This document shows positions 25,493 through 26,580 of a stretch of DNA of 64,000 bases, in pieces. The position numbers and the translations under genes were made by a program. The DNA comes from Raja brachyura (taxonomy: Eukaryota): NCBI GenBank assembly GCA_963514005.1, contig OY740802.1, positions 38,998,001-39,062,000 on the forward strand, given 5' to 3'. The notes under the pieces were generated by a model. It had not been told where the DNA came from. It made no database searches and saw only the letters and a program-made list of their open reading frames with translations. Position 1 is the stretch's first letter; every line of letters starts with the position of its first letter.

Positions 25493-26580
25493 CAGTACAA
25501 GCGAGTTTGGTATTCCGAAAAAGGGCAGGAATCATGGGATTTGTCAAAGGTCGAACGCTATAAATAAAAATCAAATGAAGCGCTGTAGATTCGGTGAGTA
25601 TAGTTTGGGTCTTTTTTTGTCTTTTTCAGTGGGGGTGGGGGGACACTGGACCACGGAGCCGCACCTCATCCGCAGCCAGGATCAAACCGGTGTCCCCAGT
25701 GCTGCTGAAACGCCACTGGACCGTCCCCGGTTTCTCTCTCTCCCCCCCCCACCCCCGCCTGGGCCAACCGACAGTCCCGTCCGACGACACCAGCGGCCCC
25801 AGGCCCGCAGGCAGGACCCACAACCAGCGCCAACTCCAGCCCAACCCCGCTCCAACTCCAGAGTAACCTGCTCCCCGATGGGCTGCTATGGCGACAAATG
25901 CCAGTTTGCCCACGGCCCGGTCGAGCTGCGCTCCCTCAGCCGCCACCCCAAGTGCAAGCCGTACCTTGCACGCCACCCGCTTCTTCATCCACAACCTCGA
26001 GGAGGAGTGGCCACGCATGCGCCAGAGCGCCAGCCTGGGCTTGGCCTCCGGCCCGACACTGCGGGCGGCCTTCAGCCCCGACCTGGAGTTGGAGCTGACC
26101 CGGACTTGGGGCTGGGCAAGGGAGGGGGAGGAGGTTGCTGCTGCTGCCAGCACCACCAACAGCACCAGCGCGCGCCTGGCCTCCGCAGACGCTCTCTCTG
26201 ACCAGGACGACCCCAGCAGCAGCGGCTCCGAGTCGCCCGTCTTCGAGCAGGGCCGGCGGCTGCCCAACTTCAGCAGGATCTCCGTGTCGGACTGAGGGGG
26301 AGGGGGGGTGGAGGTGGAGGGCTACCGGCCAACCCAACCGGACAGGCAGAGCCGAGCTGGAGCCGGCGGCTGCAAGTCCAGGGCTGCCCCAGACAGGGAC
26401 GGGACACCAGGGAGGGGACGGGGACGGCCCAGTAGCAACTCAACAGCAGCCGCAGTGACGGAGATCCGACGGACAAAACGCAGACTTGCACAATGCAGCA
26501 CCACCGTTGCCGAGGCTGTTCATAGCTGGTGGTCTATGACCTGGGCATGCGCAGTCGGAATACCGAACTCGCTTATTCCA
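25493..26580. mobile_element. Non-autonomous TIR DNA element carrying the ZFP36 fragment (superfamily unassigned)
   Basis: Left end cagtacaagcgagtttggtattccga (25493-25518) and right end tcggaataccgaactcgcttattcca (26555-26580) are inverted repeats, 21/26 identical (19/20 in the inner part). CA dinucleotide on both sides is a possible 2-bp TSD. Confidence 0.72.
25850..26295 (+). pseudogene. zfp36: Degenerate ZFP36/TTP-family (TIS11) coding fragment with deleted CCCH zinc fingers and a recognisable C-terminus
   Basis: One frame gives CYGDKCQFAHGPVELRSLSRHPK (end of finger 1 plus linker). After a frameshift it reads RTLHATRF|FIHNLEEEWPRMRQSASL...SDQDDPSSSGSESPVFEQGRRLPNFSRISVSD*, matching the family C-terminal RRLPIF.R.S.S motif. 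High GC/CpG relative to flanks. Exact paralog (ZFP36 vs L1/L2) uncertain. Confidence 0.85.

Follow-up and report, generated by a model that had tools for sequence, protein, structure and literature searches.

A ZFP36-Bearing TIR Element in the Skate Raja brachyura, Probably a Decayed Copy of a Multicopy Pack-TIR Transposon

Introduction

How did part of a ZFP36/TTP-like coding sequence come to lie between inverted termini (TIRs) in a skate genome? The stretch analysed here (the window) comprises 64,000 nucleotides of Raja brachyura (GCA_963514005.1, contig OY740802.1, positions 38,998,001 to 39,062,000), and all coordinates refer to its forward strand. The original prediction for this locus proposed a non-autonomous DNA transposon family that mobilises a piece of an mRNA-decay regulator gene, rather than a LINE-made retrocopy. 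Gene copying by such elements is seldom documented in vertebrates. In animals, a survey of 100 genomes counted 370 Pack-TIRs and 4 multicopy families, with 0 in elephant shark, the sole chondrichthyan in the part of its table available to us (PMC8277862). According to the accessible text of the same survey, multicopy Pack-TIRs prefer GC-rich cargo, and a capture-then-transpose model, FoSTeST, describes how they arise (PMC8277862).

Anatomy of the Element

The whole unit spans 25494–26579 (1,086 bp) and is bounded by 25-bp TIRs whose termini are probably GG...CC. The left TIR (25494–25518, plus strand) is decayed and identical to the right TIR (26555–26579, minus strand) at 21 of 25 positions, and the similarity stops at 25 bp without inward extension. 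With the GG...CC boundaries, the right TIR agrees with the left TIR of an in-window duplicate (27202–27226) at 24 of 25 positions, while the boundaries of the original prediction reproduced its value of 24/26. With up to three mismatches allowed, the window holds three TIR matches (25498, 26555 and 27206), compared with a mean of 0.00 over 100 shuffles, and none of these lies outside the duplicated unit. A scan of 20001–32000 for inverted repeats matching at 21 or more of 25 positions, with arms 300–2000 nt apart, returned three cases and none in each of six local shuffles; two of the three are the TIR pairings and one is a poly-C/poly-G artefact. All ZFP36-family peptides quoted earlier are present between these termini, so that this part of the prediction stands.

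The candidate TSD shifts with the chosen boundary: AC, CA and CACA/CACG accompany TIRs of 25, 26 and 24 bp, respectively, and fit equally well. The CA previously noted on both sides of 26-bp termini is present but not unique, and a 2-bp match at one among several boundary choices is weak evidence. For TSDs of 8–10 bp, the best flank match was only 4/8, 4/9 or 4/10 when TIRs of 24–28 bp were tried, in agreement with the earlier statement that there is no long TSD. Decay could obscure a few matching positions, but not as many as are lacking in these 8–10-mers.

Inside the left TIR, an AT-richer left end (25519–25630, plus strand) contains a TATA-like motif at 25559, a GTGAGT donor-like site at 25594 and a pyrimidine tract with an AG ending at 25629; from these motifs, a promoter of the element in this segment is possible. 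It is followed by a GC-rich left arm (25631–25877, plus strand), which does not encode ZFP36 sequence and shares homology with the N-terminus of P0141, a predicted protein of Leucoraja erinacea. At the capture junction (25878–25883, plus strand), the host residues F117–C118 are replaced by ATG GGC, which derives from the arm and reads into the cargo in frame. The captured ZFP36/TTP-like fragment (25884–26295, plus strand) covers host residues of about 119–289 and the stop codon, with a GC content of 69% compared with 47% for the window. Downstream, the GC-rich right arm (26296–26554, plus strand) is either the start of the host 3′ UTR or transposon DNA, and the stretch 26295–26520 is homologous to the read-through tail of a second L. 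erinacea protein, P0018. Immediately inside the right TIR, a CATGCGCA motif is situated at 26546–26553. As previously reported for this locus, there is no poly-A tail: no A8+ run exists inside the element, and its sole AATAAA sits within the TATA motif (25563), with none downstream of the stop. A plus-strand ATTTA is likewise absent from the element.

The left arm was rejected as ZFP36 N-terminal coding sequence, since host N-termini scored no better than shuffles in 3 of the 3 cases tested. A search of the ESM Atlas with this arm yielded no useful lead, and an Rfam search of the window returned 0 matches. The inner arms (25700–25853 and 26297–26448) show a weak inverted similarity to each other (99/144, score 54, reached in 0 of 200 local shuffles) that is absent from the arm of the duplicate, possibly reflecting a foldback formed at capture or long internal inverted repeats that have degenerated. 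The left arm also holds a two-unit internal repeat (P0141 residues 28–75, with PQPARRRSAN.SSTP occurring twice; window 27460–27600), which is kept unequally in the two window copies.

Captured ZFP36 Fragment

The captured portion amounts to 170 codons, approximately the 3′ 60% of the host coding sequence, and contains the second half of finger 1, the linker, finger 2, a C-terminal NOT1-binding-type motif and the stop. In a frameshift-aware alignment, 115 of 134 residues (86%) were identical to residues 120–289 of the Rhinoraja longicauda protein P0001. The corresponding values for the skate protein P0002 and for Pristis, Mobula and Heterodontus were 116/134, 101/129, 92/129 and 85/133, so that identity declines with host distance (skate > Pristis > Mobula > Heterodontus). 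Intact skate and ray orthologues of the cargo are represented by P0001–P0005, with up to 86% identity at the protein level. The homologues P0001 and P0004 differ only in their first ~13 residues, and the TTP gene has a single 5′ intron. The cargo thus probably lies within one exon; therefore, intron loss cannot be scored, and a DNA template cannot be told apart from an RNA template.

A search with the cargo, confined to proteins of 250–2000 residues, returned 6 of 5,462 candidates; the four that carry a name are chondrichthyan, and the other two are unnamed. In a tree of 31 rows, the cargo and both Leucoraja copies fell inside an 11-row clade of ISVS-ending proteins with a support of 100/100, apart from the L1/L2 rows; this tree contained neither mammalian TTP nor chondrichthyan L1 or L2, and branching within the ISVS clade was unresolved. 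The phylogenetic comparison proposed with the original prediction thereby supports a batoid/shark ISVS-type (TTP-like) ZFP36 paralogue as the probable source of the cargo. We take the ISVS C-terminal motif to be a mark of TTP, and the label "TTP orthologue" is used here because of this motif and the exclusion from the L1/L2 rows; database names for the paralogue vary. Searching the PDB with the last 37 residues gave 0 matches.

Relative to P0001, the cargo is damaged by three frameshifts (near 25959, 26107 and 26181) and eight deletions totalling 36 residues, which bears out the several internal deletions described before. The junction interrupts finger 1, whose C109 and C118 are missing in all copies, and finger 2 of the window copy lacks all three of its Cys residues (C147, C156 and C162). 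P0018 retains one full zf-CCCH stretch compared with two in P0001. The two intact CCCH fingers of a functional TTP-family member are therefore not found. According to the available part of PMC12350847, RNA binding by TTP requires the tandem fingers, while the 13 residues at its C-terminus bind NOT1. Judged from its sequence, the cargo of the window copy is a non-functional passenger. The decay of the cargo (25884–26295) is deletion-rich, with 8 short deletions compared with 19 residue changes in 170 codons, and P0018 has a separate cluster of short deletions.

Further Copies in Leucoraja erinacea

Two predicted proteins of L. erinacea carry the same chimera, namely P0018 (243 aa, on an 87,982,229-bp contig) and P0141 (147 aa, on a 139,679,016-bp contig). 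The junction reads MGCYGDK in the window copy and MGRYSDK in P0018, which starts at this point, compared with FCRYGDK or VCRYGDK in each of six host proteins; P0141 crosses the junction in a form compatible with that of the window copy. Beyond the cargo, the out-of-frame tail of P0018 aligns to 26295–26520 past the stop with a score of 157 (≤49 in 20 shuffles). Residues 1–89 of P0141 align to the left arm with a score of 126 (≤71 in 30 shuffles); against the in-window duplicate they score 117 (≤84 in shuffles). With the same chimeric junction and non-ZFP36 arms at two L. erinacea loci, the proposal of a non-autonomous family mobilising a ZFP36 piece is supported.

The substitution T144S is common to P0018 and P0141 (YKSE, versus YKTE in 6 of 6 hosts), while F150L is common to P0018 and the window copy only. 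P0018 retains segments that are deleted in the window copy and is without others that the window copy retains. Because the deletions differ between copies, all of them descend from a fuller master. The Leucoraja copies are known as predicted proteins that jointly span 25655–26520, inside the termini. One of them may be the orthologue of the window locus, which sets the minimum at two independent loci. Even then the chimera is dispersed and multicopy, because the two loci are situated on different contigs of one species. The copy number is a lower bound, as only protein-annotated copies are visible and those inside 90% clusters are uncounted.

Among the best 150 of 4,666 matches in a representative protein search with P0018, P0141 was the one further copy among 9 inspected directly, and BLASTX of the element arms against 266 proteins revealed no copies beyond P0018 and P0141. 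P0300 was rejected as an element copy, since it represents the host gene carrying an internal gap. P0018 and P0141, whose gene models in L. erinacea bear the names "ZFP36-like" and "ZFP36L3-like", are element copies and not true paralogues.

In-Window Duplicate and Genomic Setting

A partial duplicate of 25415–25851 is located at 27124–27627 (plus strand) and contains 78 bp of left flank, the left TIR (27202–27226), the left end and the arm, without cargo and without a right TIR. A 42-bp direct repeat brackets it, with the first copy at 27082–27123 (plus strand), forming the end of the duplicated unit, and the second at 27628–27669 (plus strand), identical to the first at 37 of 42 positions. 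The duplicate was rejected as a second transposition, since it shares 78 bp of sequence beyond the TIR, and it gives no evidence of transposition. From this anatomy, 27124–27627 would be what is left of a tandem duplication of 1,709 bp (25415–27123) after an internal deletion of ~1.2 kb; if the second unit lost its cargo together with the right arm and right TIR, both the shared flank and the bracketing 42-bp repeat would be accounted for. The flank of the duplicate is 95% identical and its interior 83–88%. The flank is less diverged than the interior (4/78 versus 30/198; Fisher p = 0.024, or p = 0.24 without CpG changes), which is a mild misfit to a simple tandem duplication.

The element probably lies in an intron, upstream of plus-strand exons of the PMEPA1/LDLRAD4 family. 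These are represented by the ORFs 49056–49331 (transmembrane exon) and 63455–64000 (PPxY-containing exon), for which the Atlas gave PMEPA1 family as a lead with a high score; we presume the gene to be LDLRAD4. The abundant short repeats of the window look like those of skates, and the best matches of the cargo are skate and ray proteins, in keeping with batoid DNA. The flanks 25415–25493 and 26580–26600 may resemble successive stretches of the L2-type 3′ tail found in chondrichthyan SINEs. No copy of such a SINE lies in the window; the resemblance would suggest insertion into an older SINE retroelement. The window further contains an inverted pair of 418 bp (11496–11913 and 54149–54566, 89% alike). 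The ORF 11571–11999 (minus strand), with no Pfam match, is presumably the C-terminus of a CR1-type LINE reverse transcriptase. Near-palindromic repeats are present at 40246–40441 (96-bp arms, 4 nt apart), belonging to the window's abundant short repeat family, and at 3453–3820 (91-bp arms, 186 nt apart).

Origin and Mobility of the Chimera

Most probably, a non-autonomous DNA transposon with TIRs took up the 3′ 60% of the coding sequence of a skate TTP-like ZFP36 gene once, the unit then being copied to unlinked sites, and the locus is one of its decayed copies. TIR-element sequence lies on both sides of a non-TE interior (TIRs at 25494 and 26555, and arms that are not host N-terminal coding sequence), the parental host gene is identifiable at the protein level, and the same chimera exists at unlinked loci (P0141 and P0018), as in a multicopy Pack-TIR. 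A single capture is shown by the one arm–cargo junction that the three loci have in common. Capture may have proceeded by template switching or gap repair within the element, with DNA or RNA as the template. The hybrid was dispersed, presumably by a transposase acting in trans on the 25-bp TIRs. Each copy then decayed independently via short deletions and frameshifts, and the local tandem duplication and deletion described above would have followed.

As for an autonomous partner, 775 window ORFs of ≥45 aa were listed, and the transposase scans covered 5, 22 and 93 of them: 0 Pfam families reached E ≤ 0.005 among the 93, and no transposase-like ORF was found among the 5 and 22. A cargo-free element was not found in the window, and a search for an empty site there with the excised flanks gave nothing beyond near-shuffle scores (top 42, shuffle maxima 33–39), and these on the right-flank side only. 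Scanning GTDB prokaryotic contigs for the TIR returned 0 matches, as expected, and TIR 16-mers occurred in 0 papers of the full-text literature.

LINE retrocopies are typically 5′-truncated and extend through the stop. The cargo likewise is 5′-truncated and reads through its stop codon, and it is probably single-exon with intron loss unscorable, so a truncated ZFP36 retrocopy might have landed in an ordinary MITE and lost its tail before the loaded MITE transposed. Such a history, which differs only in the capture route (RNA), is unlikely: neither a poly-A run nor AATAAA nor ATTTA follows the stop, and no internal direct repeat was seen bracketing the cargo. Of the marks of a LINE processed pseudogene, neither tail nor signal nor long TSD was found.

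Alternatively, the chimera could have been spread without a transposase, by segmental duplication or as a retrotransposed read-through transcript started at the element's own promoter, the TIRs being a relic of the first insertion. A local, flank-including duplication did occur at this locus, the other copies are known without their termini, and a TATA motif as well as a donor-like site occur in the left end. However, the copies sit on separate large contigs, the right TIR and the left TIR of the duplicate agree at 24/25, and the element contains no polyadenylation signal, so that we consider this route quite improbable. Descent by deletion from a giant Teratorn-like piggyBac–herpesvirus element is very improbable and already largely refuted: Teratorn is TIR-bound and has its own ZFP36-like gene, but piggyBac TIRs are 12–19 bp with a CCYT start and a TTAA target, according to the accessible text of PMC5601938, and the skate element has neither CCYT nor TTAA, while its cargo is 86% identical to the skate host protein, lineage-specific low-complexity tract included. 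The same identity and shared tract indicate that the capture from the host was recent.

Comparison with Known Systems

Unlike MULEs, the skate element has no 8–10-bp TSD and no long TIRs, and the 8–10-bp TSD expected for MULE, Merlin or hAT elements in general was not found. CAC...GTG ends are the signature of CACTA elements, and unlike Pack-CACTA the skate element does not carry them on both sides. PHIS elements have GG/RR termini, which the probable GG...CC ends of the skate element would match, and usually target TWA or AT, whereas the skate candidates are AC, CA or CACR. The TSDs of the PHIS group (Harbinger, ISL2EU and relatives) measure 0–4 bp in the available text of PMC10045372, compatible with the short candidates seen here. 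FB4 has TSDs of 9–10 bp (PMC8277862, accessible part). Cryptons are described in the available part of PMC3212892 as having no TIRs and 4–6-bp terminal direct repeats, while the skate element has TIRs. Unlike Teratorn of medaka, with 180 kb, CCYT ends, a TTAA target and viral genes (PMC5601938, as available), the skate element is of unrelated origin, and neither CCYT termini nor a TTAA target was found. Repbase classes such elements by termini and TSD, as stated in the accessible text of PMC4455052. Piggybac, Crypton and the long-TSD groups thus fail as superfamilies, and the PHIS group is a lead.

Like the multicopy animal Pack-TIRs in the accessible part of Tan et al. 2021 (Pack-hAT-N8_XT of Xenopus tropicalis, the alligator case and Ssk-FB4 of Drosophila melanogaster; PMC8277862), the skate element is non-autonomous with a host-gene fragment inside, its cargo is GC-rich and its copies lie on different chromosomes. 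Pack-hAT-N8_XT carries 291 bp of 5′ UTR, whereas the skate cargo has 170 codons, a stop and an in-frame ATG; Ssk-FB4 was termed the first potentially functional coding case, whereas the skate window copy is dead (PMC8277862, same part). As in plant Pack-MULE and Pack-CACTA elements (Pack-TYPE; PMC8903248, as available), coding DNA was captured and amplified between TIRs. ZFP36 had 0 occurrences in the 12 supplementary files of PMC8277862 that were accessible, and no earlier account of a skate ZFP36 element was found in the open-access literature. The element would belong to a known but rare kind, as a probable multicopy coding Pack-TIR in a skate, with a dead window copy.

Possible Coding Role of the Master

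The master element might have been an expression cassette, composed of TIR, TATA box, short exon with donor, leader, in-frame ATG, truncated TTP of ~172 residues, native stop and TIR. Its predicted product could comprise one intact finger together with the NOT1-binding motif at the C-terminus; it would be unable to bind AU-rich elements in the normal way yet could engage CCR4-NOT, as a decoy that either aids the element or is tolerated by the host. In the element, the first ATG past 25585 is that of the junction, which is in frame with the cargo; in post hoc counts, 92 of 20,000 leader shuffles gave the same, and 1,016 of 20,000 had any in-frame ATG within the final 30 nt. Against a cassette, an ATG is situated just upstream at 25575, a poly-A signal is absent and each of the three known copies is broken, and we regard this role as unlikely.

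Conclusions

A dispersed skate family with 170 regulatory-gene codons brings plant-style Pack transposition to cartilaginous fish, and it offers a tractable way to test the FoSTeST model. From its TIR, an unclassified skate DNA transposon family could be identified. At least two ZFP36-type gene models of L. erinacea are transposon copies, so that counts of the TTP family are inflated. If the cassette role were true, the master would represent a vertebrate DNA transposon with a host RNA-decay modulator, in parallel to the ZFP36-like gene of Teratorn.
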